Position numbers and translations under genes: made by a program. A stretch of DNA of 48,960 bases. It comes from an uncultured Syntrophomonas sp. (GTDB taxonomy: Bacteria; Bacillota; Syntrophomonadia; Syntrophomonadales; Syntrophomonadaceae). Shown in pieces: positions 15,471 to 37,122 of the stretch; positions within the stretch are counted from its first letter, which is position 1, and the number at the start of each line of letters is the position of its first letter. Under the pieces are notes generated by a model. The model was not told the origin of the DNA and searched no databases. It was given only the letters and a program-made list of their open reading frames with translations. The stretch is from NCBI GenBank assembly GCA_964640845.1, contig CAZXIR010000001.1:1-48960 (forward strand), written 5' to 3'.

Positions 15471-17375
15471 CTATTTATCAGCTCTTATGGTGCTCAGCAG
15501 CTGATATTTATTAATTCGCCTATAAAGAGTAGACTTACTCATACCCAGCATAATGGCAGCCTTGCTGATATTATTCCCCGACTGCAGCAAGGCCTTCAAG
15601 ATGGTTATCTTCTCTATATCTGTAAGTAAAAGTTCATGGTCTGCCCGGGTACTGGTCTGGCGGATCGAGGGTAATACGCTGCCGCTATTGCTCGGGCGGC
15701 TGATTTCCGGTGAAAGATCTTCAGGTTTGATTATTCCATCACGGCTGGTATTCACAGCTCGAAGGATTATGTTTTCCAGTTGCCGTATATTTCCTGGCCA
15801 CCTAAATCGCATTAAAAGGTACATAGCGGATTCACTTAAAACAGGAGCAGGTATCCGCTGTTTTACTGCCGTCATCTCGATGAAGTGCTCAGCCAAGGTA
15901 ATGATGTCAGTACCTCTTTCCCGTAAGGGCGGGATCTGAATATCCAGTACTGCCAGGCGATAATAAAGGTCTTGGCGGAACTGCTGCTTCTCGACTAATG
16001 CTGTCAGGTCTTTGTTGGTAGCAGTGATCAACCGAAATTCCACCGGTATATAATGGCTGCCCCCGACTCTCATAACGACTTTTTCTTCGATTACTCGAAG
16101 CAGCACACTCTGCAGCTCGAGAGGCATATCTCCAATTTCGTCCAGGAACAGTGTTCCTCCGTGGGCCATTTCAATTTTTCCTGGACTGCCCTGCCGGCCA
16201 GCTCCAGTAAAGGCGCCACCTACATAACCGAACAATTCGCTCTCGATTAGAGTGCGAGGTATGGCGGCACAATTTACTGCTATAAATGGTCCGTAGGGTC
16301 GGGTTTCATTATGTACAGCCTGAGCAAATACTTCTTTGCCGGTACCACTTTCTCCTTGGACTAAAAGGTTGGATTCCAAACGGGCATATTTTTTCACCTG
16401 CTCGATAGTTTTGAGCAAGGTTGGGTCATGACCAATAATGGAGTCGAAAGTATATCTGGCTTTTAAGCTATTGGGAACACCCCCCATTCTCCTGGATCGT
16501 TCGGGCTTTTTCGGTGGAAGTGTCAAGCGAAGGTGATTTTGAATGGCCCAGGCAGTGGACACGGTCAGCCCCAGTGAGTGAGGGTTCTGGTGGTATAAAT
16601 AGGGGCTGATGATGGTTATGCTGCCAACCAGACTTGAATTGCCATCATAAATAGGAGCTGAGGAGCAGGAGGTCTGGTTGCAAGTTTCCGTATTCTGCTC
16701 CAGAGCAGCTTGCAAAGGACTTCCCAGTATGAGTCCCATCACCTGGGAACAAGTTTCCGAATACATCTCTGGTCCGCATAATTGGATCGGGCTGCCCAGG
16801 GAAAGGCTCATCACATGAGAAACAGTCCCTACCGTTTCCTCGGTCCAGACCGTACCGGGTGTAAGTGAAAAACGTTCTTCGATCTGTCTTAGGATCGTAT
16901 CATTGCCGGTTCCCAGTCGCAGAATGACACCCTGTTCATCGGTCAATAGAATCAGATAGTTGTTGCCAGACAGCATGATTTCCAGCTGACTGATATACGG
17001 GTCTGCGGCTTGAATAATAGAGCCTTTCTCCCGCAGCAGTTCTTCAAAAGCAGATTGGTCCAGAGTGGGGCCATAAACAAAATCAAAGGGGTCCAGGCCG
17101 TAACTATGGGACCGCAGCCATGATGCTACGATTTCTGGACGTACTATATCTATCTGGGATGGTGTAATGCGTTTTTCTAACAGGTCTAATTTTTGCTGCC
17201 TAATCCTATCCAGGAGTATAAGTTCATCTTTATCGAGATTTTGTGCAACAACACCTGCTCTATTCTTGATCACAGGGCTCAACATTTGTTCCAGATGTCG
17301 CAACTCATAACCCTCCTCTTTATCATACTGGTCAGGTGCCAGGCTGAATATGTATGACGCCATCTCAGCTTTCAA
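15471..17375 (-). CDS. Sigma-54-dependent activator, AcoR-like, PAS-less paralog 2
   Basis: GESGTGKE, GAFTGA, C-terminal SKSTLYRRINK HTH. The N-terminal sensor is collinear with paralog 1 from LEQMLSPVIKNR. The start is ambiguous (TTG 17375 or ATG 17363). Confidence 0.85.
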   Translation of the reverse strand: MKAEMASYIFSLAPDQYDKEEGYELRHLEQMLSPVIKNRAGVVAQNLDKDELILLDRIRQQKLDLLEKRITPSQIDIVRPEIVASWLRSHSYGLDPFDFVYGPTLDQSAFEELLREKGSIIQAADPYISQLEIMLSGNNYLILLTDEQGVILRLGTGNDTILRQIEERFSLTPGTVWTEETVGTVSHVMSLSLGSPIQLCGPEMYSETCSQVMGLILGSPLQAALEQNTETCNQTSCSSAPIYDGNSSLVGSITIISPYLYHQNPHSLGLTVSTAWAIQNHLRLTLPPKKPERSRRMGGVPNSLKARYTFDSIIGHDPTLLKTIEQVKKYARLESNLLVQGESGTGKEVFAQAVHNETRPYGPFIAVNCAAIPRTLIESELFGYVGGAFTGAGRQGSPGKIEMAHGGTLFLDEIGDMPLELQSVLLRVIEEKVVMRVGGSHYIPVEFRLITATNKDLTALVEKQQFRQDLYYRLAVLDIQIPPLRERGTDIITLAEHFIEMTAVKQRIPAPVLSESAMYLLMRFRWPGNIRQLENIILRAVNTSRDGIIKPEDLSPEISRPSNSGSVLPSIRQTSTRADHELLLTDIEKITILKALLQSGNNISKAAIMLGMSKSTLYRRINKYQLLSTIRADK

Positions 17376-17753
17376 GAGGCTCGCATTGCGTTAGCTCTAC
17401 CCCAACTGTTAGGAAGGCAACCCCATATCCAGCATTTTGCTGAGCAGGGAATGTTTACCCATATATTTTCCCAGGATACCGAATGCCTGAAGGAATTTTG
17501 CTGCAGGACGCTGGGATCACTCATCGAATATGACAAAAATAACAACGGTGAGTTACTGTCTACTTTACGACAACTGCTGGACAGTAGTTTTAACTGGAAA
17601 GCCACAGCTCATAGCCTTTTCATTCATATCAATACCTTGTATTATCGGGTAAATAAGATACAAGAACTGCTGGAGCTTGATTTGTCCAGGATGGATACCC
17701 GGGTTAATCTATATACCGCTGTGAAGATATGGGATACTCTCAATTTGATCTGA
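17358..17753 (+). pseudogene. 3' fragment (about 130 codons) of a PucR-family regulator gene
   Basis: SFQEARIALALPQLLG ... FIHINTLYYRVNKIQELLELDL ... AVKIWDTLNLI is collinear with the last third of both full-length PucR paralogs. The N-terminal two thirds are absent. The fragment abuts and overlaps the start of the divergent activator gene. Confidence 0.8.
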
Positions 17754-17792
17754 CACAGCAACAGCATGGCAGATCTACTCCAATTCTGTTTC

Positions 17793-19349
17793 TTAAATAT
17801 GTCGCGAAGGGATCATATCATCTATATCTTTCCCGGCGGCGATAATGCCGGCGATGCGGCCAAAGGTGATGCAGCGCCCGTGACCGATACCCGGGCAGAT
17901 AGTAGGATAGTCATTGGCGAAAAAACCACCGGCGGTAGCTCCAGCAACATATAAGTTCTCAATAGGTCGGTCATATATATCCAGCACTTCGCAGTTAGTG
18001 TTAGTACGCAAGCCACCTGAAGCAGTTAGTATGGTACTTAATAATTTACCTGCGTAAAAGGGCGGTTTTACAATCGGAGTAAGCAACTCCGGACGTTTGC
18101 CATAATCGGGATCATCCTTTTGAGCAACTAATTCATTATAGCGTGTAACTGTGGCCTTAAAATTATCAACCGGAACCTTTATTTTTTGAGCCAACCCTTC
18201 AAGGGTGTCAGCAGTAAATACTTTGCCAGACCTTATATGATCCTGTAGTAACGCCTGTTCAGCATCCATATCCCATTCTTCACCTATCAAACGATTTATT
18301 TGATCCCAGAACAAACCACCGCCTATACCCATTGACACGGCTTTTTGAACATCAGATAAACCATTGGCATCATATATGGACCATGCTAGTCCTCCCGTCT
18401 CCAGTTCTTTAGTTAAGCTTTTGGACTGTATGTTTACATCTTCATTCTTGAAGCGTTTTCCCTGAGAATTTATGTGAAGGAAAAAATAACTCATTGCTCC
18501 AGCTTCTAAATGTATTACCGCTGCATGGGGTTCTATTTTTTGCATGGCTGCGCCAACCCACATGGCCATTATGTGTCCCTCCCCCATGTTAGATACCTGG
18601 GGAAAATAGAGCTGAGCATCAACTTGAAGTGCATAAGGAGCATACCTTTCCAGCATTTCTGTATTAGAAGCATAATCACCTGTGGCAATTATGACGCCTT
18701 TATCAATATTATACTGGGTATAGTTATTGGGATGACCAGCAATAACCCCGGTAATGGGCCCATTGCCATCCCTGATTAACCTTGTTGCTGGCAGATTGTA
18801 GAGGATTTCAATTCCTCGGCTCTGAACAGTCTGTTCCAGTATTTTGGCCAGACCGTAATTCCATGACTTATCTGGTCGGCCAGGAACATGAAATATATGA
18901 GCGACTGGATATTCAGTATAATAGGATCCTTTGTAATAACCATCCCAAATACCTACTTCCAATCCACCGTTTTCTGCAATATCAATAAGCCAGTCCATGC
19001 ATGCCCCACTTTTTCTAGCAAATTCCCAGAGTAAATCCTCATCAAGTTTGCCTTGAGCCCAGGCGATCCATGCACGAATGACTTCCCGGTAGTTTATTTC
19101 GATACCCAACTTCTGCTGCACCTTGCTGCCAAATGCCGCATTATGACTTCCTCTTGCTGAAAAGTACCCGTTTTTCTCAATGATTATGGGGGTGGAGCCT
19201 GCCTCTTTGGCGGATAGGGCTGCTACCATTCCTGTAAGACCTGCACCAATTATCACTATATCTGTATTAACTGTTTTTTTTATTTCAGCAGCTGGGATAG
19301 GTAATGGTTGAGTTTCCCAACTCCATTTATTATTTTGAGCCATATTCAA
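17793..19349 (-). CDS. FAD-dependent oxidoreductase (non-canonical fumarate reductase / KstD-like flavoprotein), no signal peptide
   Basis: 518 aa. DIVIIGAGLTGMVAAL FAD Rossmann motif. By eye about 60 percent identical to the 570-aa paralog, starting exactly at KWSWETQPLPIP, the residue block that follows the signal peptide in the paralog. Confidence 0.85.
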   Translation of the reverse strand: MNMAQNNKWSWETQPLPIPAAEIKKTVNTDIVIIGAGLTGMVAALSAKEAGSTPIIIEKNGYFSARGSHNAAFGSKVQQKLGIEINYREVIRAWIAWAQGKLDEDLLWEFARKSGACMDWLIDIAENGGLEVGIWDGYYKGSYYTEYPVAHIFHVPGRPDKSWNYGLAKILEQTVQSRGIEILYNLPATRLIRDGNGPITGVIAGHPNNYTQYNIDKGVIIATGDYASNTEMLERYAPYALQVDAQLYFPQVSNMGEGHIMAMWVGAAMQKIEPHAAVIHLEAGAMSYFFLHINSQGKRFKNEDVNIQSKSLTKELETGGLAWSIYDANGLSDVQKAVSMGIGGGLFWDQINRLIGEEWDMDAEQALLQDHIRSGKVFTADTLEGLAQKIKVPVDNFKATVTRYNELVAQKDDPDYGKRPELLTPIVKPPFYAGKLLSTILTASGGLRTNTNCEVLDIYDRPIENLYVAGATAGGFFANDYPTICPGIGHGRCITFGRIAGIIAAGKDIDDMIPSRHI

Positions 19350-19498
19350 GAAATCACACCCTTAATGAAAAGCTTCATAAAAATTTCCTAATCTAATAAT
19401 ACTAATATCTACTAATTTAAACAACATTAGCCCCTTTACCGATAGTTCCTCAAGAACAAACCGCTTTGACTAAAATAACAATGTCTCGCTTACCCTAT

Positions 19499-20692
19499 CT
19501 ACTCCATGAGATTACAGGTATTAAGGGTATCCCAGGCTCTAATAGCAGTATATAGATGAAGGCGGGTTTCAAACAAGGAAAAATCTACATTGAGAAGTTT
19601 TTGAACTTTGAACATCCTATAATAAACGGTATTTACATGAACGTACATCTGGTTGGCGGTAGTTGTCCAGCTACAGGAATTATCCAGTAGAATTCTCAGT
19701 GTATCCATCAAGTCAGTTCCGTACTTTTCGTCATGTTCAATTATCTGGCCCAACACCTGAAGACAGTAATTTTTTACCGTTTCTGTATGATGGGAGAATA
19801 TTATGGAAAATACACCTAGTTGAGAAAAATATTGTATAAAGCGTTTTTGCCCTGTCAAGCGGGGCAGGGCTACAGCTATACAAGCTTCCTGATAACTCTG
19901 CAGCAAACCCGATGGCCGGTAAATTCGGCCTAAACCCTGAGAATAAGTTATGTTGAATTTATTTTCTATAGTTTGTTTGGTTGCAGGCAAGGTTTCCCTT
20001 CCCGGCCAGTCGGGATCTATGTTCATGGGACTGCCTTTAGGATTGGCTTGTAAAATAGTAACCAGTCGGTCCCGGGCTATAATAGAACTGATATATTCGC
20101 AACGATCTCGGTTAAAAGTCTCATAAATATAGGAACGAAGTATTCTCCAATCCAAATGATCCGGAATTTCCTCCATATCCAAGACCGATACAAAATAATA
20201 ATTATTTATGTCCATTTTCTGTTCATATATTTTAAGTTTATCAGGGATGCTCACATCTGCAGACAAGAAGAAGTTTTCATAAAGGCTCTGTCCGAAATCC
20301 TCCTTATTCTTAATCACTTCGTTATTTATATGAAAGTGATACTTCAAAGCTAGCCGACTTTCTTTCAATAGCGCCAGGACAGGAGCTGTGTTTTCCGGGG
20401 ATATGTTTTCAACTATTACATAACCAATGCAGGTGGAGTTATGGTGAAGCCGGTAATAAAGAAAATTATTGCTTAACAAGACATCAGGATGATCGATAAA
20501 TCCATCTGGAATATCCATGAAGAGATCATCAGCATTGTAAGCGACATCTGACTTATCCGGGTAGTGTATTCTGCCGGTAGCATCAGTTATTATTATACCT
20601 TTGCCGACTTTTTTCACCAGGTAGGCGCCGACAAAAGGTAGTCCGGTATCCAGCATACCTTCCATTAAATAATGCGAAATTTTAAAGTCCAT
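19499..20692 (-). CDS. PucR/CdaR-family transcriptional regulator (paralog 2)
   Basis: C-terminal HTH TTANQMYVHVNTVYYRMFKVQKLLNVDF. Likely start at ATG 20692 (MDFKISHYLMEG), preceded by GGTGGTG. The track start at 20716 adds 8 residues. Confidence 0.8.
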   Translation of the reverse strand: MDFKISHYLMEGMLDTGLPFVGAYLVKKVGKGIIITDATGRIHYPDKSDVAYNADDLFMDIPDGFIDHPDVLLSNNFLYYRLHHNSTCIGYVIVENISPENTAPVLALLKESRLALKYHFHINNEVIKNKEDFGQSLYENFFLSADVSIPDKLKIYEQKMDINNYYFVSVLDMEEIPDHLDWRILRSYIYETFNRDRCEYISSIIARDRLVTILQANPKGSPMNIDPDWPGRETLPATKQTIENKFNITYSQGLGRIYRPSGLLQSYQEACIAVALPRLTGQKRFIQYFSQLGVFSIIFSHHTETVKNYCLQVLGQIIEHDEKYGTDLMDTLRILLDNSCSWTTTANQMYVHVNTVYYRMFKVQKLLNVDFSLFETRLHLYTAIRAWDTLNTCNLME

Positions 20693-20872
20693 TGATAAAT
20701 GCACCACCAATATCAAACAATCACGGTTTTACGTCTGTTATAATAGTATGGCTGATAAAAGATCCTGCAATGCTCCCTGTTAGGAGGAGATTCATCGACA
20801 ACATTTACAATAAGTTACTGCTATTACTGCCTCTCCATATACATGATTACAATGTTCCCCGATGTGAGGAAA

Positions 20873-20899
20873 TAGGGAGAGTCAGATAGACGCTCCCTA
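20873..20899 (-). terminator. Possible weak terminator after the Tat flavoprotein gene
   Basis: TAGGGAG (20873-20879) / CTCCCTA (20893-20899): 7-bp stem, 13-nt loop. TTTCCTC follows on the minus strand. Confidence 0.35.
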
Positions 20900-20938
20900 T
20901 AAAACCTAAATTCAAGCAATATTTAATAGAGTATCAGA

Positions 20939-22651
20939 CTAGATCTTTAGAGAAGCAATAGTATCCAATGATCCTCCGGCAGCCAAAACACCAGTCATCC
21001 GGCCAAAAGTAATACAACGGCCATGGCCGATACCCGGACATATGGTGGGATAGTCATTGGCAAAGAATTCACCCTGAGCCGCTCCGGCTACATATAATCC
21101 CTCAATAGGCTTGCCAGCTTCATCTAATACATGCAGGCTCTTATCAGTCCTCAGACCACCGCACATTGTGAGGAGGGTGCTATAAAGTTTGCCAGCGTAA
21201 AAAGGTGCCTTTACTATGGGGTTTAACAGCTCAGCACGCTTGCCATAGTCAACATCATTCTTTTGGACTGCCAATTCATTATAGCGGGCCACAGTAGCCT
21301 TAAAAGCATCAACAGGGACCTCCATTTTTTGAGCCAGTTCTTCGATGGTGTTAGCTACTACTACCTTTCCATCCTTAATATGCGCATCTAAGGTAGTCTT
21401 CTCGACCTCCATATTCCATTCCAGGCCTTTGATCTGCCACATTTGCCCATAGAACAATCCACCGGCGATACCGCTGTCTACCTGCTGTTTGACCTGGTCT
21501 AAACCATCAGCATCGTAAATGGTCCAGGCTATGCCTTCAGGTTCCAGCTCTTTGGTGCAGCTCTTGGACTGGGTATTAACGTCCTCATTTTTGAAGCGTT
21601 CACCCAGAGCATTGACATGAAGGAAACCATAACTTGCAGCTCCTGCTTCCAGATGAATAACGGCTGCGTGCGGCTCATGTCTCTGCATAGCTCCTCCAGC
21701 CCACATAGCCATTATCATGCCTTCGCCGGTATTACATTTATTAGGGAAGTAAATCTGCGCATCAGCCCTGAGTGAAAACGGATCGAATCTTTCTTTCATT
21801 TCGTCATTTGATGCATAATCACCGGTAGCGATAATTACTCCGCCTTTACCATTATACTGGATATAATTAGCTGCTTCACCGGCAACTACACCGGTAACAG
21901 GGCCATCGCCTTCTCTAACTAGTTGAACTGCTGGTGTGCCGTAGTCTATTTGAACGCCCTTTTCTTTAGCAATAGCTTCCAGTTCTCTGACCAGTACTAT
22001 GTTTCCAATTTTATCAGCATTACCTCCAATATACAGGAAGTCAGTATCATCCTCTAAGAAGAAGTGAGTAACCGGGTATTCTGTATAATCAGGTCCTTTG
22101 TAATATCCATCCCACATAGCTGTCTTTAATCCGCGTGGTGTTACCATGTCAATAACCCAGTCCATGCAAGCTCCGCTTTTTTGTCCGAACTGCCAGAGTA
22201 AATCTTCATCGATTCTGCCTTGGGCCCAGGCAATCCATTCTCTGATGATTTGGCGGTAGTTATTATTTATCCCCATTTCCTTTTGTAATTTGCTACCAAA
22301 AGCAGTTATATGGCCACCCCTTGCTGCCCAAGTATCATTCTTTTCAATAATGACAACTTTAGCACCTTGTTCAACAGCTCCTAGACTTGCACATATTCCA
22401 GCCAGTCCAGCACCGATTATAACTACATCTGCATCAACGGTTTTCTTAATCTCCGAGGCAGGTATCGGATCAGGCTTGGTTTCCCAGCTCCACTTGGTAC
22501 CAGCGCCAGCCTGTCCATCGGGAGGGGTTGCCTCATTAGGGCTGCAGCCTACCAGCATGCCGGCTGAAGCTAGCCCTACAGCGCCAATAGCCGTACCCTG
22601 AATAAATTTTCTTCTAGATATGCCCTTTTTGCCATTTTCTTCTAAACTCAT
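20939..22651 (-). CDS. Tat-exported lipoprotein FAD-dependent oxidoreductase (Cgr2/UrdA-like extracytoplasmic flavin reductase candidate)
   Basis: 570 aa. SRRKFIQG twin-arginine motif, hydrophobic h-region, lipobox LVGC. DVVIIGAGLAGICASL FAD motif, GERFKNED, GLYVAGA. AGAGGAG RBS upstream. Confidence 0.9.
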   Translation of the reverse strand: MSLEENGKKGISRRKFIQGTAIGAVGLASAGMLVGCSPNEATPPDGQAGAGTKWSWETKPDPIPASEIKKTVDADVVIIGAGLAGICASLGAVEQGAKVVIIEKNDTWAARGGHITAFGSKLQKEMGINNNYRQIIREWIAWAQGRIDEDLLWQFGQKSGACMDWVIDMVTPRGLKTAMWDGYYKGPDYTEYPVTHFFLEDDTDFLYIGGNADKIGNIVLVRELEAIAKEKGVQIDYGTPAVQLVREGDGPVTGVVAGEAANYIQYNGKGGVIIATGDYASNDEMKERFDPFSLRADAQIYFPNKCNTGEGMIMAMWAGGAMQRHEPHAAVIHLEAGAASYGFLHVNALGERFKNEDVNTQSKSCTKELEPEGIAWTIYDADGLDQVKQQVDSGIAGGLFYGQMWQIKGLEWNMEVEKTTLDAHIKDGKVVVANTIEELAQKMEVPVDAFKATVARYNELAVQKNDVDYGKRAELLNPIVKAPFYAGKLYSTLLTMCGGLRTDKSLHVLDEAGKPIEGLYVAGAAQGEFFANDYPTICPGIGHGRCITFGRMTGVLAAGGSLDTIASLKI

Positions 22652-23119
22652 GGATCCTACTCCTCTCTAATTGGTTTTTTTGCGAAAAAACACGAATCGT
22701 GTCACGAGTCTAACTCAATGGTAACACGCGGGATGAAGATATTCGATTGGGGGCGAATACTAAAATGAAGTTAAAAACTTAGGGTAGGCTCCAAAAGAAA
22801 TGAGCAGGTAGATAGACTATAATTGAGGAGAAATTGGTGAGGTGATCAGTTTGGTATTTCTGTAAATTTCATTCCATTATTATAAATGGCTACGGTCTTT
22901 TTGTACAGGGGGGAAGTTTGATATTGTGTACATCATGTAGCAATAAGCAGCAGATTGATAGTATACGGCGGAGTCTAAAATAGAAGGTGCTTTAAAGAAG
23001 AACTGAGACAAGTGGTTCTGCAATTAAGCGAACAGCTTGACCAGTTAATTGTAAGTTGCTACAAGTGCCAAAGCAATTTACAAAAAACCATAAATATAGC
23101 TAACAAGGGGGTCTTTTAA

Positions 23120-23662
23120 ATGGAAAATAACGCAGAAAATGGCGCCAAAGGATGGAAAGCTTTATTTAGTAAAAAAGTTATACTAGCAGGATTGGGATTA
23201 GCTGTTATTATTGGAGTTGGGGTAGGGGCCTATCTGGTAAAGGCCAGTGAAAATCCAGAATTTTGTAGCAGCTGTCATTTAATGGTGCCCTATTACGATT
23301 CCTATCACGACAGTAACCTTTTAGCCAACCAGCATGCTGAGGCAGAGCTGGATTGTCACGATTGCCATGAGAGCTCGATAGCTATACAAGCCCAAGAAGG
23401 ATGGAAGTTTATCACCGGGAATTATCAAATACCATTAGAGAGACGCGAGTTTTCTAAGGAATTTTGTCTTGAATGTCATGATGATTTTGATACTACCGTG
23501 AAAGCAGCCACCGATTTCGAACATGCCAATCCGCATGATTCTCATAATGGGGAATTGGAATGCAATGTTTGTCACAATATGCACAAACCATCTCAAGTTT
23601 TTTGTGCAGAGTGTCATATATTTGATTGGTTCGACGAAATTGATGAAAGCTGGGCTAATTAA
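23120..23662 (+). CDS. Membrane-anchored pentaheme cytochrome c (NapC/NirT/NrfH-like quinol dehydrogenase candidate)
   Basis: 180 aa. One N-terminal TM helix (VILAGLGLAVIIGVGVGAYLV). Five CxxCH motifs: CSSCH, CHDCH, CLECH, CNVCH, CAECH. Confidence 0.9.
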   Translation: MENNAENGAKGWKALFSKKVILAGLGLAVIIGVGVGAYLVKASENPEFCSSCHLMVPYYDSYHDSNLLANQHAEAELDCHDCHESSIAIQAQEGWKFITGNYQIPLERREFSKEFCLECHDDFDTTVKAATDFEHANPHDSHNGELECNVCHNMHKPSQVFCAECHIFDWFDEIDESWAN

Positions 23663-23901
23663 AAAGAGCGGGATCTGTAGAATCATTAGCATTAGATGCC
23701 TGTACAAATAGAGGGTGTTAATATTGGTGATTTATCCAAAGGAAATTTCTAAGAAACACTGTACAATGTAATTAATCCATGGGAGACATAACATAGAGGA
23801 ATTAGAGGACGGTTCTTTCTGTTTTAGTCATATTCAAGTGGTTATTTTTTAAGAGACAGTCGAACCGTTCATTTATGTCCTGGGGCTGGAGGAGTGATTA
23901 T

Positions 23902-24909
23902 ATGCGCCAGATTTTCCATACCCTGGTTAAGAATATCTCGTCGATGAAAACCGGATTAGTTCTGCTGGCATTGCTGGCAATATTTTCAGCAATAGGAAGC
24001 AGTATATTTCCGGACATGTTTCATCGATTACTACTATTTAATGCTTTAATTATTCTGTTATTTATTAACCTGGGATTATGTACTCTAAACCGCTGGCTTA
24101 AAATAGGAAAGCGGCTGTTGGTTAAGCAGCATAATATTATTAATCATCTTCGGCAGTGGGGACTGCTGGTTTTGCATACCGGATTAATTTTAATTCTGGT
24201 GGGGGGAATGATTAATTCTTTAGCGGGTCAAAGCGGAAATGTTAAGGTGGTTGAAGGAGAACGAGTAGTTATTGCCCATAGCAAAGAGGGAGAAGATATC
24301 AGCCTGTGCTTAGAAGAATTTGAAATAGAACTGTATGAAAATGGCATGCCTTCCCAGTATTTATCAAAAGTACTGATATATAAGGGGGATGACTTGGAAC
24401 AGCAGTCTACTATTAGTGTTAATCATCCTCTGCAGTATGATGGCCTAAAAGTTTACCAGCAGAGTTATGGCATTATGGTGGAGGTTATTGTTGAAGGGGA
24501 TGGGAAGACTGAAACCTACTCGGCATCAGAAGGCCAGATATTAGAAATACCGGGTAGCAGCTATCGGGTTAAGGTTTTTAAGTATGTGCCTGATTTTGAC
24601 CCTTCATACGGCATGGAAAGTAAGACTAATGAGCCTAATAATCCTCGGGTAATATATTCCGTTTATCAGGATGAACAGCTTTTAGGAGTAGGGGCAGCAC
24701 GCTGGGGGGAAAGGATAGAAATATCCGCAACATCTTTTGTGGAGTTTGATGGACCTAAGCCCTACTCGGTTCTGAAAGTAAAGGAAGATCCGGGATTACC
24801 TTATGCGGCAGCCGGGGGAATTCTATTTATGCTGGGGGCAGCCTTGGCCGAGATTAATATTTTTAGAAACAAGTCGGGAAAAAAGGTTAGAAAAACGGTG
24901 GAGGAATAA
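23902..24909 (+). CDS. resB: Cytochrome c biogenesis protein ResB/Ccs1 (system II)
   Basis: N-terminal MKTGLVLLALLAIFSAIGS, typical of ResB. Large extracytoplasmic loop and C-terminal TM segment. ATG 23902 follows GGAGGAG. Immediately upstream of ccsA. Confidence 0.8.
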   Translation: MRQIFHTLVKNISSMKTGLVLLALLAIFSAIGSSIFPDMFHRLLLFNALIILLFINLGLCTLNRWLKIGKRLLVKQHNIINHLRQWGLLVLHTGLILILVGGMINSLAGQSGNVKVVEGERVVIAHSKEGEDISLCLEEFEIELYENGMPSQYLSKVLIYKGDDLEQQSTISVNHPLQYDGLKVYQQSYGIMVEVIVEGDGKTETYSASEGQILEIPGSSYRVKVFKYVPDFDPSYGMESKTNEPNNPRVIYSVYQDEQLLGVGAARWGERIEISATSFVEFDGPKPYSVLKVKEDPGLPYAAAGGILFMLGAALAEINIFRNKSGKKVRKTVEE

Positions 24910-24911
24910 CT

Positions 24912-25697
24912 ATGGCAGTATTGATTAAGACTAGCATCATTCTGGCACTGTTTATGTATTTAATCAGCAGTTGCTTATATTTAACCGGGCTGAAAACTAG
25001 CAGGAATAACCTGCTCATGGTCGCCAGTTCAGCAGCAATTATTGGTGCTGTGGCTAACTTGGTGGCAATCATTGCACGAACTATATTAAGTGGCCGATTA
25101 CCTTTAACTGATGGCTATGAGTTTATATTATGTTTTACGTTTATAAGCGTTCTCTTGTATCTGTGGTATGAAAAGATGAGTAATAGTAAAAGCGGTGGGG
25201 CAGTACTGATGCTTATGGCTTCCTTGTTACTAGGTTCGGTATTTATTCTTATGCCTGATCAGCATGGGGTGTACAGTCCGTTGATGCCGGCCCTTAAAAG
25301 TTCGTGGCTAATCAGTCATGTATTAACAGCGGTATTGGCCTATAGTGCATTTACCTTGGCTGCAGCCCTGGCAGTAGTACAAGTAGCAAAAAAGGATAAC
25401 AGTGATGATATTAATGTTTATCGGGCAGTAGGCGGCGGGTTTGTCATGTTATCCATATCTATAGTATTAGGCGGGGTATGGGCGGAACAAGCCTGGGGAA
25501 CTTACTGGAGCTGGGATCCCAAGGAAACCTGGGCCTTGGTAACCTGGATAATCTATGCTATATACCTGCACATATATCGCAGCCAAGGCTGGAAGGGAAG
25601 CAATGCTAACCTGGTGGTTATAGCAGGATTCATATTGGTTCTCTTTACGTTTTTTGGAGTCAACTATCTATTATCGGGACTGCACAGCTACGGCTAG
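24912..25697 (+). CDS. ccsA: Cytochrome c assembly protein CcsA/ResC (system II heme handling)
   Basis: 261 aa polytopic protein. Tryptophan-rich WWD-type heme-handling motif WGTYWSWDPKETWA. GGAGG RBS. Confidence 0.85.
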   Translation: MAVLIKTSIILALFMYLISSCLYLTGLKTSRNNLLMVASSAAIIGAVANLVAIIARTILSGRLPLTDGYEFILCFTFISVLLYLWYEKMSNSKSGGAVLMLMASLLLGSVFILMPDQHGVYSPLMPALKSSWLISHVLTAVLAYSAFTLAAALAVVQVAKKDNSDDINVYRAVGGGFVMLSISIVLGGVWAEQAWGTYWSWDPKETWALVTWIIYAIYLHIYRSQGWKGSNANLVVIAGFILVLFTFFGVNYLLSGLHSYG

Positions 25698-25843
25698 GAA
25701 TAGGCCGGGGGGACGGTTCCAAAACGAAGAATAAGGTGGGTTTAAGTAGTATATATACTATTTGAAATAGGCGTTGTAGTAGCTGGAATAATTGACAGCA
25801 GAAGAATGCAGACTTTGGCCCGGCTAAAAAAGGAGGATGAATT

Positions 25844-26023
25844 ATGTTTGGACTTATTGGTAACTTTGGTCCTTGGGAAATGGGATTTATTCTGGTTGTT
25901 CTTTTAATAATAGTAGGACCCGGGAAATTACCCAAGGTAGGAGAGTCGATGGGTAAAGCCCTGAGCAATTTCAAGAAAGCCCGAGAAGAAAGCGATGATT
26001 ATTTAGATATATCCGAAAAATAG
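25844..26023 (+). CDS. tatA: Twin-arginine translocase subunit TatA/E (59 aa; absent from the ORF track because it is under 60 aa)
   Basis: My own translation: MFGLIGNFGPWEMGFILVVLLIIVGPGKLPKVGESMGKALSNFKKAREESDDYLDISEK. It has one TM helix, the GPGKLPKVG hinge and an amphipathic helix. AGGAGGA RBS 6 nt upstream. TAG stop at 26021-26023. Confidence 0.85.
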   Translation: MFGLIGNFGPWEMGFILVVLLIIVGPGKLPKVGESMGKALSNFKKAREESDDYLDISEK

Positions 26024-26044
26024 AGACGGTAGGCACGGGAGCTC

Positions 26045-26074
26045 AGCAGGCAGGGGGAGACCTTTCTGCCTGCT
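26045..26074. terminator. Hairpin between convergent tatA and the TRAP large permease gene
   Basis: AGCAGGCAG (26045-26053) / CTGCCTGCT (26066-26074): 9-bp stem. Confidence 0.55.
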
Positions 26075-26078
26075 TCCG

Positions 26079-27389
26079 TTATTTCATGAGGGTATTGGGG
26101 AGAAATGTGGCCAGGGTAGGAAAGGCAATTAACAATACCAAACAGAATACTAAAGCAATAAGAAAAGGCCATATACCTTTGAATATTAATTCTACTGGAA
26201 TCTCTGGCGCTACTCCTTTAATAACGTATACATTCATGCCTACCGGAGGAGTAATTACTCCCATAGCTACTACCATCACCATGATCACGCCAAACCATAT
26301 AGGGTCATAGCCTAGGGTATTTACCACCACTGGGAAGAAAATGGGAATGGTAAGTAGAATAAGGGCCAGGGCATCAATAAAGCAGCCCAGGATAAGATAA
26401 ATAACCAGAATAATGGCCATTACCACCACCGCTGGAAGGGCCAATTCTCCCGCCCAGGAAGCCAGTTCAAAAGGGACCCGGCTGACAGCCATAAATCGGC
26501 CAAACATCATAGCTCCGGCAATCATCAGCATAATCATAGCTGTAGTGCGGGTTGCATCAAAAAGGGATTTTTTAAAACCTTCCAGGCTTAGGTTTTTGCC
26601 CAGCAGTGCAGCCAAGAGTACACCAGCAGCACCTACTGCTCCTGCTTCAGTAGGAGTGAACCATCCTTTAAACAGGCCGCCCATGGATAGGGCAAATACA
26701 AATAGTACCTCAGCCAGGCCGCCGCGCAGGCTCTCCAGCCGCTCCTTCCAATCTGCCCGAGGTCCGGCCGGACCCAGTTCAGGACGGCGCAAGGTCAAAA
26801 TCCAGATGGTAACTATATAACACAGCATCAGCAGAATGCCGGGGATAATACCTGCCATAAACAATTTGCCTATAGACTGTTCCGTAGCCATTCCATAAAC
26901 AATAAAGATAACGCTAGGTGGTATTAAAACTCCCAGCACTCCGCCTGCAGCAATACTTGCTGTGGCCAAAGACATATCATAGTGGTATTTTTTCATTTCC
27001 GGCAGGGCAATAGCGCCCATGGTTGCTGCGGTAGCGGTATTGGAACCACAGATGGCGCCAAATACCCCACAGGCTATCTGAGTGGCTATGGCAAGGCCGC
27101 CCGGCCAGTGCCCAATCAGTTTATAAGCAAACACATACAATCTGGTTCCAATGCCAGAATAGAAAGCAAGAAACCCCATCCAGATGAACATTACAATAAC
27201 ACTTAGAGAATAAGAAGAAAAAGTATTATATATTTCCTTGGCTACCATACTGAAACCTGATGATATAGAAGTCAGGAAACTAAAACCTACAAAGCCCACC
27301 AGGGCCATAGCATAGGCAATTGGCATCCGTAGTATTAAAAGCAGCATAAAAGCAGCTAATCCTATAAGTCCGGCCACAAGCGAATTCAT
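26079..27389 (-). CDS. TRAP transporter large permease (DctM family)
   Basis: 436-aa polytopic protein. Start overlaps the DctQ-like stop. Typical DctM length and glycine-rich helices. Confidence 0.9.
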   Translation of the reverse strand: MNSLVAGLIGLAAFMLLLILRMPIAYAMALVGFVGFSFLTSISSGFSMVAKEIYNTFSSYSLSVIVMFIWMGFLAFYSGIGTRLYVFAYKLIGHWPGGLAIATQIACGVFGAICGSNTATAATMGAIALPEMKKYHYDMSLATASIAAGGVLGVLIPPSVIFIVYGMATEQSIGKLFMAGIIPGILLMLCYIVTIWILTLRRPELGPAGPRADWKERLESLRGGLAEVLFVFALSMGGLFKGWFTPTEAGAVGAAGVLLAALLGKNLSLEGFKKSLFDATRTTAMIMLMIAGAMMFGRFMAVSRVPFELASWAGELALPAVVVMAIILVIYLILGCFIDALALILLTIPIFFPVVVNTLGYDPIWFGVIMVMVVAMGVITPPVGMNVYVIKGVAPEIPVELIFKGIWPFLIALVFCLVLLIAFPTLATFLPNTLMK

Positions 27390-27871
27390 CTAAAAGCCCT
27401 CTTTAGCGATTCCGATAGTCCTACTGACAATACCAGGCTTAAAGCCAAAAGTCCGAAAGATATCAGGTAGACCACCGGATACAATGGTATTTGGGTGGTT
27501 GGAGATACGGTATTGCTTTCTAGCATAGTCCCGGCATATTTAGCCACATACCATGCAGACATTCCCCAAAATGATAGTGCGATAATATTGGTAAGCACAT
27601 CGGCAGCGGCCTGTAGTTTTTGAGAAAGTCGTTCGATGATAAAATCTACCGCTATATGACCATTCTGAGAGGCGCAGTGGGCCAAGGCCAGGCCGATACC
27701 TGCAGCGGTTAGCATAGTTACATATTCGTAAGTTCCCAGTATGGGACGATTAAAAAGCGCGCGCAGTAGGACGTTGCTTACTACCAGGACCATCACTGCT
27801 ACAACGCAAAGTCCTGCTAGATAATCTAGATGTTGACTTATTTTCTTTATCTGTCGAGTTAATTTATTCAT
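27386..27871 (-). CDS. TRAP transporter small permease (DctQ family)
   Basis: 161 aa with four hydrophobic segments, positioned between the DctP-like and DctM-like genes. GAGGAGGTG RBS. Confidence 0.85.
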   Translation of the reverse strand: MNKLTRQIKKISQHLDYLAGLCVVAVMVLVVSNVLLRALFNRPILGTYEYVTMLTAAGIGLALAHCASQNGHIAVDFIIERLSQKLQAAADVLTNIIALSFWGMSAWYVAKYAGTMLESNTVSPTTQIPLYPVVYLISFGLLALSLVLSVGLSESLKRAFR

Positions 27872-27890
27872 AACTGCACCTCCTCATCCC

Positions 27891-28979
27891 TTATTTGTAT
27901 TCCTGGTTATATTTTTCAGCCAGTTCCTTAACCGTATCCAATATCTCCTGTCCTGATTGTCCGCCTGCATCCATTCTGGCTATAAATTCATCTTGAATTG
28001 GCTTAACCAGGGTGATCCACTTATCTGCTTCCTCCTGTGAGAGCGGGATGACCTCCATGCCCTGCTCGTCGATTGCATACTTTAAGGCATCTTCATTCTG
28101 TTTATCCCATAAACCAATAGCTACCGCTTCAAAATACTCTTTATTGACAGCTTCAATAGCCTCTTGAATATCAGGGTCGAGCGAATTCCATTTATCAAGA
28201 TTTATAGTAATAAAAAACAAGGTATTGTATAGGAATGGGGTTTCAGTAATGTAACTGGTTACTTCGGCTTGTTTCCAGCCCTTCAGTACTTCAACCGGGC
28301 CTAGATTTCCCCGAACCACTCCCTTGGTTATAGCTTCATAGGCATCTGATTGGGGCATCGCGGCTGGGATAGCTCCTAGGGCTTGCAGGGTTTTGGCGCT
28401 GAGACCAGTGGCTCTGATTTCCATGCCCTGCAGATCCTCAAGATTGCGAACCGCATCCTTGGTGTACAAGTCGCCCGGGCCAGTAGTGAGTACCATCATA
28501 AGTTTAGTATCCTGAATTTCTGGGGGATTAAGTTCTTTTATACCTTCCCAGGCTACCTTGCTGGCCACCTTGGAATTATTATAGGTTATTCCCGGCAGTT
28601 CAAAGGCTTCCAATACCGGGAAACGACCCCTAGTGTACGAAAAACATGAAAGACCCAGATCGGCACTGCCATCCACTACTCCGGCATAAATGGAGTCAGC
28701 ATTCAACAGGGTTTGGTTGGGGTAACTGGTTATTTTCACCTGGCCATCGGTTGCTTCTTCTATAGCCTTAATCCAGGGTTGTATCAGTTCAGTTTCAGCA
28801 GGGTGAGTACTGGGGAAAAAATGTGCCAGTCTCAGCTCAACTGTCTTGGTTTGGTTCTGTTCCGGGCTACTGGAGTTTGAACACCCCATAGCAGTACCCA
28901 TTATTATAATGAGCAGCAGAGACAAGAGTTTAATACCTATCCGTTTTTTGTGTCCTTTTATACCCAACAAAGCTTGCAT
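27891..28979 (-). CDS. TRAP transporter solute-binding lipoprotein (DctP family)
   Basis: 362 aa. Signal peptide with lipobox AMGC. The RLAHFFPSTHP and YTRGRFP region is typical of DctP-type binding proteins. AAGGAGGAG RBS. Confidence 0.9.
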   Translation of the reverse strand: MQALLGIKGHKKRIGIKLLSLLLIIIMGTAMGCSNSSSPEQNQTKTVELRLAHFFPSTHPAETELIQPWIKAIEEATDGQVKITSYPNQTLLNADSIYAGVVDGSADLGLSCFSYTRGRFPVLEAFELPGITYNNSKVASKVAWEGIKELNPPEIQDTKLMMVLTTGPGDLYTKDAVRNLEDLQGMEIRATGLSAKTLQALGAIPAAMPQSDAYEAITKGVVRGNLGPVEVLKGWKQAEVTSYITETPFLYNTLFFITINLDKWNSLDPDIQEAIEAVNKEYFEAVAIGLWDKQNEDALKYAIDEQGMEVIPLSQEEADKWITLVKPIQDEFIARMDAGGQSGQEILDTVKELAEKYNQEYK

Positions 28980-30173: not shown

Positions 30174-30539
30174 TTGCTAGCAGAATATCCAGCCCTGGGA
30201 ATATTTTTTCTAATCACTTTGGCCTTTCCTGTGGCAGCCATGGCTATGGCCTGGCTATTCCGGCCTAAACCAAAGGCAGCACCAGACCATGAAAAATATA
30301 CCACTTATGAATGTGGGGTAGATACCCAAGGTAAAACCTGGATCAGGTTTAAAGTGAACTATTTTTTGTATGCTCTGGTGTTTCTGGCCTTTGATGTAGA
30401 AATCGTATTTCTTTATCCTTGGGCCGTCAAGTTCGGAGTCTTGGGACCTTTTGCCTTTATCGAGATGATAATCTTCATCGCCATATTACTTATTGCACTA
30501 TGGTATGCCTGGAAGGAGGGGGCTTTGGAATGGTATTAG
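30174..30539 (+). CDS. nuoA: NADH-quinone oxidoreductase (complex I-like) subunit A
   Basis: 121 aa, three TM segments, YECG motif. First gene of a collinear nuo cluster. TTG start after AAGGAGGG. Confidence 0.85.
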
Positions 30540-31042
30540 ATACTAAAAATAAGGACCAGGATAATGATGTAGAAGAACTGGCCAGTAACAATATCCTGGT
30601 TACTAGCTTTGAGAAACTATGGAATTGGGGAAGATCCTGGTCTTTCTGGCCCTTAAATTATGGCTGTAATTGCTGTCCCATCGAAGTCATGGCTGCAGGA
30701 GCAGGCAGATTTGACCAAGCTCGCTTTGGATATGAGGTAGTAAGGGCGGTGCCCCGTCAGGCTGATCTATTGACCGTGGCGGGTCCTATCACCCTTAAGA
30801 TGAAACCAGCCGTTGAGCGGGTGTGGGCGCAGATGCCGGAGCCCAAGTGGGTGATCGCCATGGGCAATTGTGCTATTAGCGGCGGACCTTTTACAGATGG
30901 CTACAGTGTGTTGCCGGGGGTAGATTCAATTATTCCCGTGGATGTATATATACCAGGATGCCCGGTAAGGCCGGAAGCCTTGTTTCACGGCATGCTGGAG
31001 TTAAAAAAGAAAGTCCAGCAGGGCGAATACCGGAGGAGTTGA
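30530..31042 (+). CDS. nuoB: Complex I subunit B (N2 Fe-S cluster subunit)
   Basis: [19 protein letters not shown] and PGCPVRPE cluster-binding motifs. ATG 30530 follows GGAAGGAGGGGG and overlaps the nuoA stop. The track start at 30419 lies inside nuoA. Confidence 0.9.
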
Positions 31043-31046
31043 TAAG

Positions 31047-31496
31047 GTGCAGGATTTTAACCTGGAGCAGATGGTCCAGAACCTGGAAGAGCAACTAGGA
31101 GATAAACTGAGAACGGTAATGGATCAATTTTTCACGGTCTTGAATGTAGAAAAAAGTGAATTAAAAACTTTAATGCTTAGACTCAGAGATAATTATGGAT
31201 TCAACCACCTGGCTAATCTTAGCTCGGTTGATTATAATGAGGAATTTGAAGTAGTTTACCACCTTTATTCGATTCCCACCAACCACAAGATTTGTGTTAA
31301 GACTAGGGTTCCCAGAAACTCGGCAGAAGTGGATTCGCTAATAGATATCTGGCCCACCGCCGACTGGCAGGAAAGAGAAGTATATGACCTGATGGGAATC
31401 CAGTTTAAAGGTCATCCCAACCTGATCCGGGTCTTGCTCCCGGACAATTTTGATGGGCATCCCCTGCGCAAGGATTTTGTGATGGGAGGGCGATGA
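31047..31496 (+). CDS. nuoC: Complex I subunit C
   Basis: 149 aa. WPTADWQEREVYDLMGIQFKGHPN signature. GTG start after GGAGGAG. Confidence 0.9.
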   Translation: MQDFNLEQMVQNLEEQLGDKLRTVMDQFFTVLNVEKSELKTLMLRLRDNYGFNHLANLSSVDYNEEFEVVYHLYSIPTNHKICVKTRVPRNSAEVDSLIDIWPTADWQEREVYDLMGIQFKGHPNLIRVLLPDNFDGHPLRKDFVMGGR

Positions 31497-31499
31497 TAG

Positions 31500-32600: not shown

Positions 32601-32649
32601 AAGCAGTCAATCCCATTGACTAATCAGACTCAAGAGGAGCGAATGATTT

Positions 32650-33690: not shown

Positions 33691-33692
33691 AT

Positions 33693-34382: not shown

Positions 34383-34912
34383 TGTTGGATTTCTCTGCTT
34401 TCTCATTATATGATGCGGTATTTATAGCCATTGCTGGAGTAACGGTTTTTGGCGCCCTAGGGGTAGTCTTGTTCAGAAATATCATTTACAGCGCCTTGAG
34501 CCTGATTTTGGCCTTCCTGGGAGTAGCCGCAATCTATTTTCAGTTAAATGCCGGTTTTTTAGGAGTTATACAGATCCTGGTATATGCTGGAGCTATATCA
34601 GTATTGATTATTTTCGCCATTATGCTGGTGATGAATAGACCTGCCGGCAGATCTAATCTAACCAGTCCGCGCATCAGGGAAGCTTTTGTCGGTGGTACTA
34701 TTACTGCTATGATGCTTACGGCCCTGATTGCGGCCATTGGGCTTTCTGATTGGCCCAAAAGAGTGCTGTTTGCAGGAGCAGATGATACGGTGGGGATCTT
34801 GGCAGAACTAATGCTGGGTGACTATGTAGTGGCCTTTGAGGCCGCTGCTATACTACTCTTGGTAGCAGTTGTGGGGGCTATTATACTGGCAAAGGGGGTT
34901 GAAAACAAGTGA
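34382..34912 (+). CDS. nuoJ: Complex I subunit J
   Basis: 176 aa, five TM segments. ILVYAGAISVLIIFAIML signature. TAATG overlap with nuoI. Confidence 0.85.
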   Translation: MLDFSAFSLYDAVFIAIAGVTVFGALGVVLFRNIIYSALSLILAFLGVAAIYFQLNAGFLGVIQILVYAGAISVLIIFAIMLVMNRPAGRSNLTSPRIREAFVGGTITAMMLTALIAAIGLSDWPKRVLFAGADDTVGILAELMLGDYVVAFEAAAILLLVAVVGAIILAKGVENK

Positions 34913-35217: not shown

Positions 35218-35218
35218 G

Positions 35219-37105: not shown

Positions 37106-37122
37106 GAGGGGGTAGGTAATCA

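Follow-up and report, generated by a model that had tools for sequence, protein, structure and literature searches.

In Eggerthella lenta the flavoprotein Cgr2, an FAD_binding_2 protein with a twin-arginine translocation (Tat) signal, is encoded beside Cgr1, a membrane-anchored cytochrome with NapC/NirT and PF14537 features (PMC5953540). The methacrylate reductase Mrd is likewise a haem-less flavoprotein exported by Tat, its multihaem cytochrome Mcc is exported separately and encoded alongside, and the system is patchily spread over phyla (PMC4427408). Fcc3 (FccA) of Shewanella joins haem and flavin domains in one polypeptide, and UrdA and ArdA are extracytoplasmic FAD_binding_2 reductases of unsaturated organic acids. 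Here we describe a locus of comparable design in positions 1–48,960 of contig CAZXIR010000001.1 from an uncultured Syntrophomonas sp. This whole stretch of 48,960 nucleotides is called the window, and all coordinates below are window positions. A gene for a flavoprotein with a predicted Tat signal diverges here from a gene for a pentahaem cytochrome c, which is followed by genes for cytochrome c maturation and for TatA. We favour, with moderate confidence, the reading that the module serves an uncultured monoderm, Syntrophomonadaceae-like Firmicute as an extracytoplasmic quinol:organic-acceptor reductase. Its working would resemble that of Cgr1/Cgr2, Mrd/Mcc, FccABC and a split Fcc3, yet by the criteria compared it appears to belong to none of these families. 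The design itself is already known; what is noteworthy is the recurrent cassette of cytochrome and maturation genes, a conserved signal-less paralogue of the flavoprotein, and a family that crosses phyla and has an aromatic-type regulator in diderms.

Gene order was compared on maps of 23 related loci, which are referred to by number where they have to be told apart: L001–L003 (Deferribacteres), L008 (Shewanella), L009 (Denitrovibrio), L012 (Desulfosediminicola, CP050699.1), L010 and L013 (the same organism), L014 and L020 (a single 17.7-kb contig, Ga0209639_1001970), and L024 (a near-identical strain from an independent sample, whose contig stops within ccsA). The core features of the window are as follows (aa, amino acids; ORF, open reading frame).

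20939–22651, minus strand: FAD flavoprotein with Tat signal and lipobox, 570 aa, the predicted catalytic reductase (ORF list; FAD_binding_2, PF00890, 141 bits)
22652–23119: divergent control region of 468 bp between the flavoprotein and cytochrome genes
23120–23662, plus strand: membrane-anchored pentahaem cytochrome c, 180 aa (PF14537, Cytochrom_c3_2, 54.4 bits; PF03264, NapC/NirT, 34.2 bits; both above cut-off)
23875–24909, plus strand: ResB/CcsB of cytochrome c maturation system II, ORF of 344 aa (PF05140, 139.6 bits)
24912–25697, plus strand: CcsA/CcsB haem-handling subunit, 261 aa (TIGR03144, 219.5 bits, cut-off 187.6; PF01578, 154.6 bits)
25749–25817, plus strand: tatC remnant, the final ~23 codons (69 nt), located by tblastn with the TatC proteins of L007 and L010
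25844–26023, plus strand: TatA, 59 aa (PF02416, 52.7 bits; 93% identical to TatA of L007)
26045–26074, plus strand: terminator-like stem-loop of 13 pairs (7 G-C) that ends the cytochrome–ccs–tatA unit

The original prediction, made from the letters of the window, had named the flavoprotein, the cytochrome, resB, ccsA and tatA; all five genes appear in the ORF list at the positions it gave, and the gap it reported between the divergent genes measures 468 bp.

Comparison with described systems

Besides the arrangement of its two central genes, the locus shares with Cgr1/Cgr2 active-site residues that diverge from the fumarate type (PMC5953540), and, as in the Eggerthellaceae, such reductases are numerous in single genomes or lineages. 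The cgr operon is described as having two genes, with a reported LuxR-type regulator (PMC5953540), whereas here the enzyme is a predicted lipoprotein, ccs and tat genes adjoin the cytochrome gene, and the regulators are of the PucR and sigma-54 types. The label Cgr1/Cgr2-like in the original prediction holds for the overall design and not for family membership. The best NCBIfam match of the window cytochrome is indeed Cgr1 (NF051471), but at 62.7 bits against an equivalog cut-off of 340, and it covers residues 65–167 only. Cgr2 is reported to have 16 cysteines and an oxygen-sensitive [4Fe-4S] cluster, whereas among the cysteines of the 30 members of the window flavoprotein family only C538 is invariant and C546 nearly so; with a single invariant cysteine, a Cgr2-like iron-sulfur cluster seems unlikely.

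Mcc is soluble and carries four to seven haems, while the window cytochrome is anchored in the membrane. In Wolinella, quinol oxidation needs a separate NapC-type protein. Mrd of G. sulfurreducens AM-1 has about 510–526 aa, with homologues 62–65% identical to it in Anaeromyxobacter, Desulfatibacillum and Denitrovibrio (PMC4427408). Orthology of the window enzyme to methacrylate reductase was considered and, on the published description of Mrd, judged improbable: the Denitrovibrio homologue of Mrd has 507 aa (YP_003505239), whereas the orthologue of the window enzyme in that organism has 568 aa (P0049) and is encoded elsewhere, so that the two appear to belong to separate orthologous groups.

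With Fcc3 the window enzyme shares the fold of the flavin and clamp domains. In the window, however, the parts are separate polypeptides, the cytochrome has an additional NrfH-like membrane module, and export would be by Tat with a lipid anchor rather than by Sec. UrdA and ArdA use an FMN_bind domain with covalent FMN; the window flavoprotein has no Pfam match to FMN_bind, so that electrons must enter it through haem, and it lacks the two active-site arginines.

The pentahaem cytochrome

The cytochrome has one N-terminal hydrophobic helix (residues ~20–40) and five CxxCH motifs (C49, C79, C116, C148 and C162), in agreement with the single-helix pentahaem protein that had been predicted. Judged by its alignments, it reads as an NrfH (helix and haems 1–2) fused to the haem chain of Fcc3 (haems 3–5). 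Residues 18–98 align with NrfH of Desulfovibrio vulgaris (2j7a_C) over the helix, the first haem motif (FCSSCHLMVP against FCTSCHIMNP) and, at equal spacing, the second haem motif. Residues 104–178 align with residues 24–98 of Shewanella Fcc3 (E 2.6e-7), a stretch of its haem domain that takes in the final three haems and reaches to where the flavin domain begins. Because haems 3–5 are homologous to haems 2–4 of Fcc3, the flavoprotein and cytochrome together look like a split, membrane-plugged Fcc3.

The features that define NapC/NirT/NrfH quinol dehydrogenases are all present: a PF03264 score above the cut-off (34.2 against 24.1 bits), the N-terminal helix and a CxxCHxM motif. The methionine of this motif in NrfH ligates the haem that adjoins the quinol site. 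The protein falls short of the NrfH equivalog model (TIGR03153, 40.9 bits; cut-off 134.2) and differs from NrfH in having five haems instead of four, a C-terminal half of the Fcc3 type, and a flavoprotein in place of NrfA as its partner.

Among nine aligned homologues the five haem motifs and H72, H139, H142 and H155 are invariant. Firmicute cytochromes keep the N-terminal anchor and CH[LI]M. Those of diderms have a Sec signal, no methionine after the first haem motif, and CX3CH as the first motif (L001, L008, L009 and L012); the Sec signal and the missing methionine are as expected of soluble periplasmic partners fed by another quinol dehydrogenase.

The flavoprotein

The N-terminus of the flavoprotein, MSLEENGKKGISRRKFIQGTAIGAVGLASAGMLVGCSP, contains the twin-arginine motif SRRKFIQ followed by a hydrophobic stretch and an LVGC lipobox (AGMLVGC). 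By these elements (RR motif, hydrophobic region and a lipobox of the form [LVI][ASTVI][GAS]C) it is a predicted Tat lipoprotein. The RR motif and an LxGC lipobox occur together in the signal-bearing Firmicute homologues; among those examined the one exception, a Desulfitobacterium protein in L026, has the lipobox without the RR motif. In the diderm orthologues the RR motif is present and the lipobox cysteine absent. The Tex protein encoded in the window is 88% identical to one from a hydrocarbon-metagenome contig, 76% to those of metagenome-assembled genomes labelled Syntrophomonadaceae and about 62% to those of Desulfotomaculum-like genera, which places the host among uncultured monoderm Firmicutes; in such a cell a lipid anchor on an exported enzyme is meaningful. 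Motifs and Pfam matches agree with the original prediction of an FAD flavoprotein exported by Tat and anchored by a lipid, with a membrane multihaem cytochrome next to it.

The family of the flavoprotein is very tight: its 30 aligned members, drawn from Firmicutes, Deferribacteres, Desulfobacterota, Gammaproteobacteria and other groups, are 57–78% identical to the window enzyme, with a mean column identity of 66%, and in the four named phyla and classes its gene adjoins that of the pentahaem cytochrome. The same family beside the same five-haem cytochrome thus extends from Firmicutes to Shewanella. Its nearest relatives are found in metagenomes of hydrocarbon and digester samples and in metagenome-assembled genomes of Syntrophomonadaceae. 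An exact peptide scan of the GTDB species genomes yielded only three Deferribacteres loci.

The profile and structure searches that had been proposed place the flavoprotein in no tight group with a characterised enzyme. In the NCBIfam search every equivalog model stayed below its cut-off: the two best matches were the vinylphenol reductase VprA (NF053717, 176.5 bits against 600), barely above the second, TIGR01813 (171.2 bits against 285.45, a model to which Fcc3 belongs), and the KstD and delta4-(5alpha)-KSTD models (KSTD, 3-ketosteroid dehydrogenase) gave 89–125 bits against cut-offs of 788–793. Solved structures are distant (sequence search E about 1e-28, identity ≤25%). An AlphaFold2 model (predicted local distance difference test, pLDDT, 80.6; predicted template modelling score, pTM, 0.83) was compared with solved structures by Foldseek, in which UrdA, Fcc3, KstD, delta4-(5alpha)-KSTD and cyclohexanone dehydrogenase matched about equally at 16–25% identity. 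UrdA was the top match (TMt 0.84), and for UrdA, Fcc3 and KstD the identity was 20–25%.

On alignment with Fcc3, the active site does not appear to be the Arg/His/Arg carboxylate clamp of fumarate and urocanate reductases. The catalytic acid of Fcc3, Arg402, aligns with Gln361, which is invariant in the 30 family members; His504/His505 align with Leu494/Thr495, of which L494 is invariant; and Arg545 aligns with Ile537, next to a three-residue YPT insertion. The fumarate-type residues Arg402, His504 and Arg545 are all replaced in this alignment; His504 and Arg545 bind substrate in Fcc3, as does His365. Of other Fcc3 residues, Glu378 aligns with the invariant Glu335, and His365 with His325 in a column that is not conserved. 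The insertion lies in a stretch, D533-Y534-P535-T536...C538-P539-G540, that is invariant in all 30 members, paralogues included. The Tyr/Ser pair of the 3-ketosteroid delta4-(5alpha)-dehydrogenase 4at0 aligns, tentatively, with the invariant Y534/T536; the third 4at0 tyrosine falls just beyond the aligned block and has no obvious counterpart in the window enzyme, so that the Tyr/Tyr/Ser set of these dehydrogenases is incomplete. Gln361 together with a DYPT insertion aligned to the KSTD Tyr/Ser would fit polarisation of a carbonyl or phenolic oxygen. In cinnamate reductases, three of four clades lack the two arginines and conserve a tyrosine at the position of the second, and clade-specific residues are essential by mutation in the gut enzymes (Little et al., bioRxiv 10.1101/2022.12.26.521950). 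The window flavoprotein shows the pattern of these clades, with no arginines and a tyrosine at the last active-site position.

Maturation and export genes

ResB (CcsB) and CcsA, the two components of cytochrome c maturation system II, both score above their family cut-offs, and CcsA carries WGTYWSWDP, a motif of the WWD type. Relatives of ResB have 334–335 aa, which indicates that the true start is probably at 23902. The matches to PF05140, TIGR03144 and PF02416 bear out the system II pair and the tatA gene that had been predicted beside the cytochrome.

The Tat genes are less complete than the original prediction of a self-contained module implied. In L007 and L010 the order is cytochrome–resB–ccsA–tatC–tatA with tatC intact. 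In the window only 146 bp separate ccsA from tatA, and they hold the 69-nt remnant, corresponding to TatC residues 226–248 (74% identical to L007 and 67% to L010 by tblastn). With the L007 and L010 TatC proteins as tblastn queries, neither the rest of tatC at the locus nor any other TatC in the window was found. The claim of self-containment therefore fails: with its tatC decayed, the locus lacks a full Tat set, and export would depend on a TatC from another part of the genome.

The co-location of ccs and tatA genes with a reductase had been called unusual, yet it is far from a one-off. The cassette is present in at least eight independent Firmicute loci. The same gene order occurs with orthologous flavoproteins in L007, L010/L013, L014 and L018 and with other flavoproteins in L015–L017, L019, L020 and L022, a recurrence from which we conclude that the grouping of the genes is not due to chance. 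Nine metagenome loci (L013–L020 and L022) have cytochrome, ResB and CcsA, and five of them (L014, L016, L017, L019 and L020) TatA as well. The 17.7-kb contig of L014 and L020 carries two full cytochrome–ResB–TatA–CcsA cassettes, with tatA between resB and ccsA, and in L017 four genes for Tat-lipoprotein flavoproteins surround one cassette. Besides orthologues, the cassette-linked flavoproteins include some only 27–40% identical to the window enzyme. All that bear a signal have an RR motif and an LxGC lipobox; the signal-less ones are the L014 paralogue and an incomplete ORF in L016. Desulfitobacterium sp. Sab5 has the cytochrome with a divergent flavoprotein and no ccs genes. Co-location of ccs and tat genes with the cytochrome is a conserved design of this Firmicute lineage, sometimes even duplicated, and not a coincidence of a single genome.

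Maturation genes beside the cytochrome that they serve are also seen with the dedicated haem lyases NrfI and CcsA1 of Wolinella and NrfEFG of E. coli. Known dedicated lyases handle unusual motifs such as CxxCK or Cx15CH, whereas the motifs in the window cytochrome are all ordinary CxxCH, and the cassette adds tatA and, ancestrally, tatC. Heterologous expression of Cgr1-type cytochromes has so far failed (PMC5953540), and the co-encoded maturation cassette is a candidate tool for expressing them in other hosts.

Orthologues in diderms and the nature of the acceptor

Six diderm loci (L008, L009, L012 and L001–L003) encode orthologues 61–65% identical to the window flavoprotein. All six form a compact unit of a divergent XylR-type sigma-54 activator, the flavoprotein and the pentahaem cytochrome. 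Pfam finds XylR_N in the activators of L008, L009 and L012 and V4R in those of L009 and L012; the L001–L003 activators are 50–64% identical to that of L009. A promoter of the form TGGCA[CT]-N5-TTGC lies ~50–65 nt upstream of the flavoprotein start in every one of the six, with inverted repeats further upstream in most. A Phenol_MetA_deg porin adjoins the unit in five loci and lies ~7 kb away in L012. No catabolic genes were found beside the diderm orthologues, which fits an acceptor that is reduced and released. In L012 the unit is flanked on either side by genes for a reductive dehalogenase, RdhA, together with VcrB-like and FMN_bind/Fer4_5 partners.

Activators of the XylR/DmpR type sense aromatic effectors. 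In the window, as in L007 and L010, the locus is adjoined by a tripartite ATP-independent periplasmic (TRAP) transporter, and the closest solved binding proteins of its DctP subunit include Dde_0634 (4pgn, 4nap; E about 5e-48), which binds indole-3-acetate and D-tryptophan (PMC9543091, PMC10443332). This similarity suggests that the TRAP solute is an aromatic acid; a functional link between transporter and module is something we infer only. The original prediction held that the physiological acceptor cannot be read from the sequence, and that statement stands. The XylR/V4R activators, the porin, the absence of catabolic genes, a DctP resembling an indole-acetate binder and the active-site pattern shared with cinnamate reductases nonetheless give a low-confidence lead: the acceptor may be a hydrophobic aromatic whose double bond can be reduced, for instance an aryl-acrylate or a vinylphenol.

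Culturable diderms with the orthologue in a compact operon include Shewanella algicola, S. phaeophyticola, Ferrimonas lipolytica and Denitrovibrio acetiphilus. Given these operons, and the sigma-54 promoter confirmed at the S. phaeophyticola and Denitrovibrio loci examined, inducer and acceptor could be found quickly. If the acceptor is an aromatic alkene, it would constitute an additional electron acceptor for anaerobic digesters and oil-degrading communities and would change the reading of the physiology of Syntrophomonadaceae-like syntrophs.

Proposed function and alternatives

These results lead us to propose the following scheme. The single-helix pentahaem cytochrome would oxidise menaquinol at the membrane face through its NrfH-like end, and electrons would pass along haems 3–5, the last of which would reduce the FAD of the flavoprotein. 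The flavoprotein would fold with its FAD in the cytoplasm and be exported by Tat, after which a lipid on Cys36 would tether it to the outer face of the membrane. FADH− would then donate hydride to the activated C=C bond in some organic compound outside the cell, in an active site employing the invariant Gln361 and the D533-Y534-P535-T536 insertion. The likeliest acceptor, again with low confidence, would be a hydrophobic aromatic alkene, for example (hydroxy)cinnamate, another aryl-acrylate or a vinylphenol-type compound. ResB and CcsA would attach the five haems outside the membrane, and TatA would help export, with TatC supplied from elsewhere in the genome. In Firmicutes, expression would probably be under the PucR-type regulator, by way of a sigma-70-type promoter and a conserved leader.

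Several observations weigh against this scheme. A literature search for a characterised family member, its biochemistry or its expression found nothing relevant. Similarity in sequence and structure does not separate reductase from dehydrogenase, as KstD-type enzymes and cyclohexanone dehydrogenase match about as well as Fcc3 and UrdA. The equivalence of Y534/T536 to the 4at0 pair is tentative because the alignment is gapped at the YPT insertion, and the 4at0 residues concerned, Tyr466/Ser468 (with a 20-residue tag offset), are a pair that we take to be catalytic. The case for an aromatic acceptor rests on the diderm orthologues, whereas the Firmicute loci are without a porin and rely on other regulators, namely PucR and a different type of sigma-54 activator. 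From the cytochrome gene to resB there are 212–239 bp, a spacing also kept in relatives, so that the two genes need not share a transcript and the maturation genes may have their own promoter. Of the minimal Gram-positive Tat translocase, TatA plus TatC, the window encodes TatA only. Finally, with tatC deleted and decay nearby, the module could be impaired in this strain.

The ambiguity between reductases and dehydrogenases raises the question of reverse operation, in which an enzyme like KstD or cyclohexanone dehydrogenase would oxidise an external ketone or phenolic and send the electrons through the cytochrome to menaquinone. In the Foldseek ranking KstD, delta4-(5alpha)-KSTD and cyclohexanone dehydrogenase stand roughly level with the reductases, the NCBIfam matches include several steroid and cyclohexane-carboxylate dehydrogenases, and Y534/T536 align with the 4at0 pair. 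We nevertheless consider this direction improbable, since it is energetically unfavourable to oxidise a C–C bond at the expense of menaquinone, the known role of NrfH-type cytochromes is that of quinol dehydrogenases, the characterised extracytoplasmic pairs of this design (Fcc3, FccABC, Mrd/Mcc and Cgr) are all reductases, and the diderm loci have no downstream catabolic genes. A reductase could also serve as a means of detoxification or an electron sink, removing a toxic unsaturated aromatic at the cell surface with no energy conserved and no respiratory growth. From the topology, quinol oxidation and substrate reduction would both take place on the outer face and the branch itself would build no proton gradient, and the regulators of the diderm orthologues are of a kind that responds to toxic aromatics. 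However, accepted respiratory periplasmic reductases have the same topology, their upstream dehydrogenases conserving the energy, and a nuo-like cluster is present at about 30.2–40.0 kb in the window. This possibility, which largely overlaps the scheme above and differs from it in physiology alone, seems to us rather unlikely, if somewhat less so than reverse operation.

Decay of the whole locus, with activity residing in other flavoprotein–cytochrome cassettes of the genome, is the alternative to which we give least credence. Apart from the tatC remnant, the second cytochrome of L007 and a sensor with a PAS domain found in L007 and L010 are missing from the window, and close by are a truncated flavoprotein ORF and a piece of a PucR gene, arranged alike in L024. 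On the other hand, the six core genes are intact, full-length ORFs with every family-invariant residue, and the cytochrome is 99% identical in two other samples. Gram-positive bacteria often have one tatC and several tatA genes, as in D. hafniense DCB-2 with one tatC and four tatA genes (PMC3306737), so that losing a second tatC need not stop export. Each of these alternatives appears less likely than the quinol:organic-acceptor reductase proposed here, whose role is presumed to be respiratory.

The signal-less paralogue and neighbouring genes

The following genes flank the core features.

19499–20716 (ATG at 20692), minus strand: PucR-type regulator (PF13556, PucR helix-turn-helix, 64.4 bits)
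17793–19349, minus strand: signal-less flavoprotein paralogue, 518 aa, 62% identical to the exported enzyme
15471–17375, minus strand: sigma-54 enhancer-binding protein with an uncharacterised N-terminal domain (PF00158, 218 bits)
26079–28979, minus strand: TRAP transporter DctM–DctQ–DctP (DctP at 27891–28979; PF03480, 157 bits)

The PF13556 match confirms the PucR-type regulator predicted beside the flavoprotein gene, which runs from 19499 to 20692 or 20716; the ATG at 20692 gives 397 aa, as called in L024, and relatives have 397–401 aa. The first residues of the paralogue are the KWSWE motif with which the mature exported form begins. An in-frame stop lies upstream of this start at a distance of only four codons, and all family-invariant columns are retained. 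The trio of exported flavoprotein, PucR and paralogue is conserved in L004–L006, L007, L010/L013, L014 and L024, the PucR-type gene lying between the other two, in L004–L006 as split ORFs. L007 has its second cytochrome gene after the paralogue. A 38%-identical homologue of the 15471–17375 activator occupies the same position by the paralogue on contig Ga0209639_1001970, and on this positional evidence the activator appears to be associated with the locus.

We also speculate that the cytochrome–ResB–CcsA–TatA(C) cassette is a duplicating electron hub for many Tat-lipoprotein flavin reductases and that the paralogue hitch-hikes through Tat on its signal-bearing sister. In Syntrophomonadaceae-like Firmicutes the hub would provide quinol-derived electrons plus its own maturation and export parts, and the paralogue would be part of a two-flavoprotein surface reductase instead of a cytoplasmic protein. 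We put this forward as a long shot, doubtful when both parts are taken together. If both were true, supposedly obligate syntrophs would hold a hidden respiration on aromatic plant- or oil-derived alkenes.

Other ORFs around the locus are incomplete or vary between relatives. The match of a 366-aa flavoprotein ORF at 14194–15294 (plus strand) to FAD_binding_2 does not start until profile position 147, so that the N-terminal dinucleotide-binding part is absent; the ORF is probably a pseudogene or remnant, and its presence in the independent sample L024 shows that it is not an assembly error. A 100-aa ORF at 17451–17753 (plus strand), beside the paralogue gene and at the place where L007 has the second cytochrome, contains only the C-terminal helix-turn-helix of PucR and is a regulator fragment. 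Both are identically arranged in L024. The sensor with a PAS domain has 894 aa; in L007 and L010 its gene is placed between tatA and dctM. The nuo-like (complex I) genes form a plus-strand run at about 30174–40049, in which a 49-kDa subunit (31500–32600) and a NuoL-type subunit (35219–37105) were confirmed.

Control region and promoters

A promoter scan places a sigma-70-like promoter of the flavoprotein gene, TGTACA-17-TATAAT, at 22907–22879 on the minus strand, where L007 and L010 conserve it. After the promoter comes a leader of ~230 nt (22652–22885, minus strand), which is much better conserved than the cytochrome-proximal half of the region. Aligned with its counterparts in L007 and L010, the control region has a column identity of 75%, most of it towards the flavoprotein gene. 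RNAalifold pairs the pyrimidine-rich tracts of the leader with the ribosome-binding site, and the leader may act in the control of translation or may consist of several sites for a regulator. A riboswitch or other known RNA is not supported: Rfam finds no family in 17000–26200, the sole match being a chance-level sRNA (E 0.15), and the RNAalifold fold from three sequences is weak (−6.5 kcal/mol). No sigma-54 site was found in 22652–23119, in the other local intergenic regions, or in the control regions examined in Firmicute relatives.

Four of the 15 TGTACA palindromes in the window lie in the intergenic regions that flank the cytochrome gene (22902, 22927, 23701 and 23760), and one of these copies is the predicted −35 element. 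L007 and L010 keep one TGTACA in each flanking region. It is possible that the palindrome is a regulator site.

Sigma-54-type promoters occur elsewhere in the window. One, TGGCATATTTATTGCA, at 11741–11756 (minus strand), is upstream of a second PucR gene (10510–11703) and divergent from a sigma-54 activator (11962–14061). A perfect one, TGGCACCGGTATTGCA, at 47672–47687 (minus strand), precedes the 46776–47546 gene at the head of a minus-strand cluster with thiolase and coenzyme A transferase genes, and is divergent from another sigma-54 activator (47896–48960) that runs off the end of the window.

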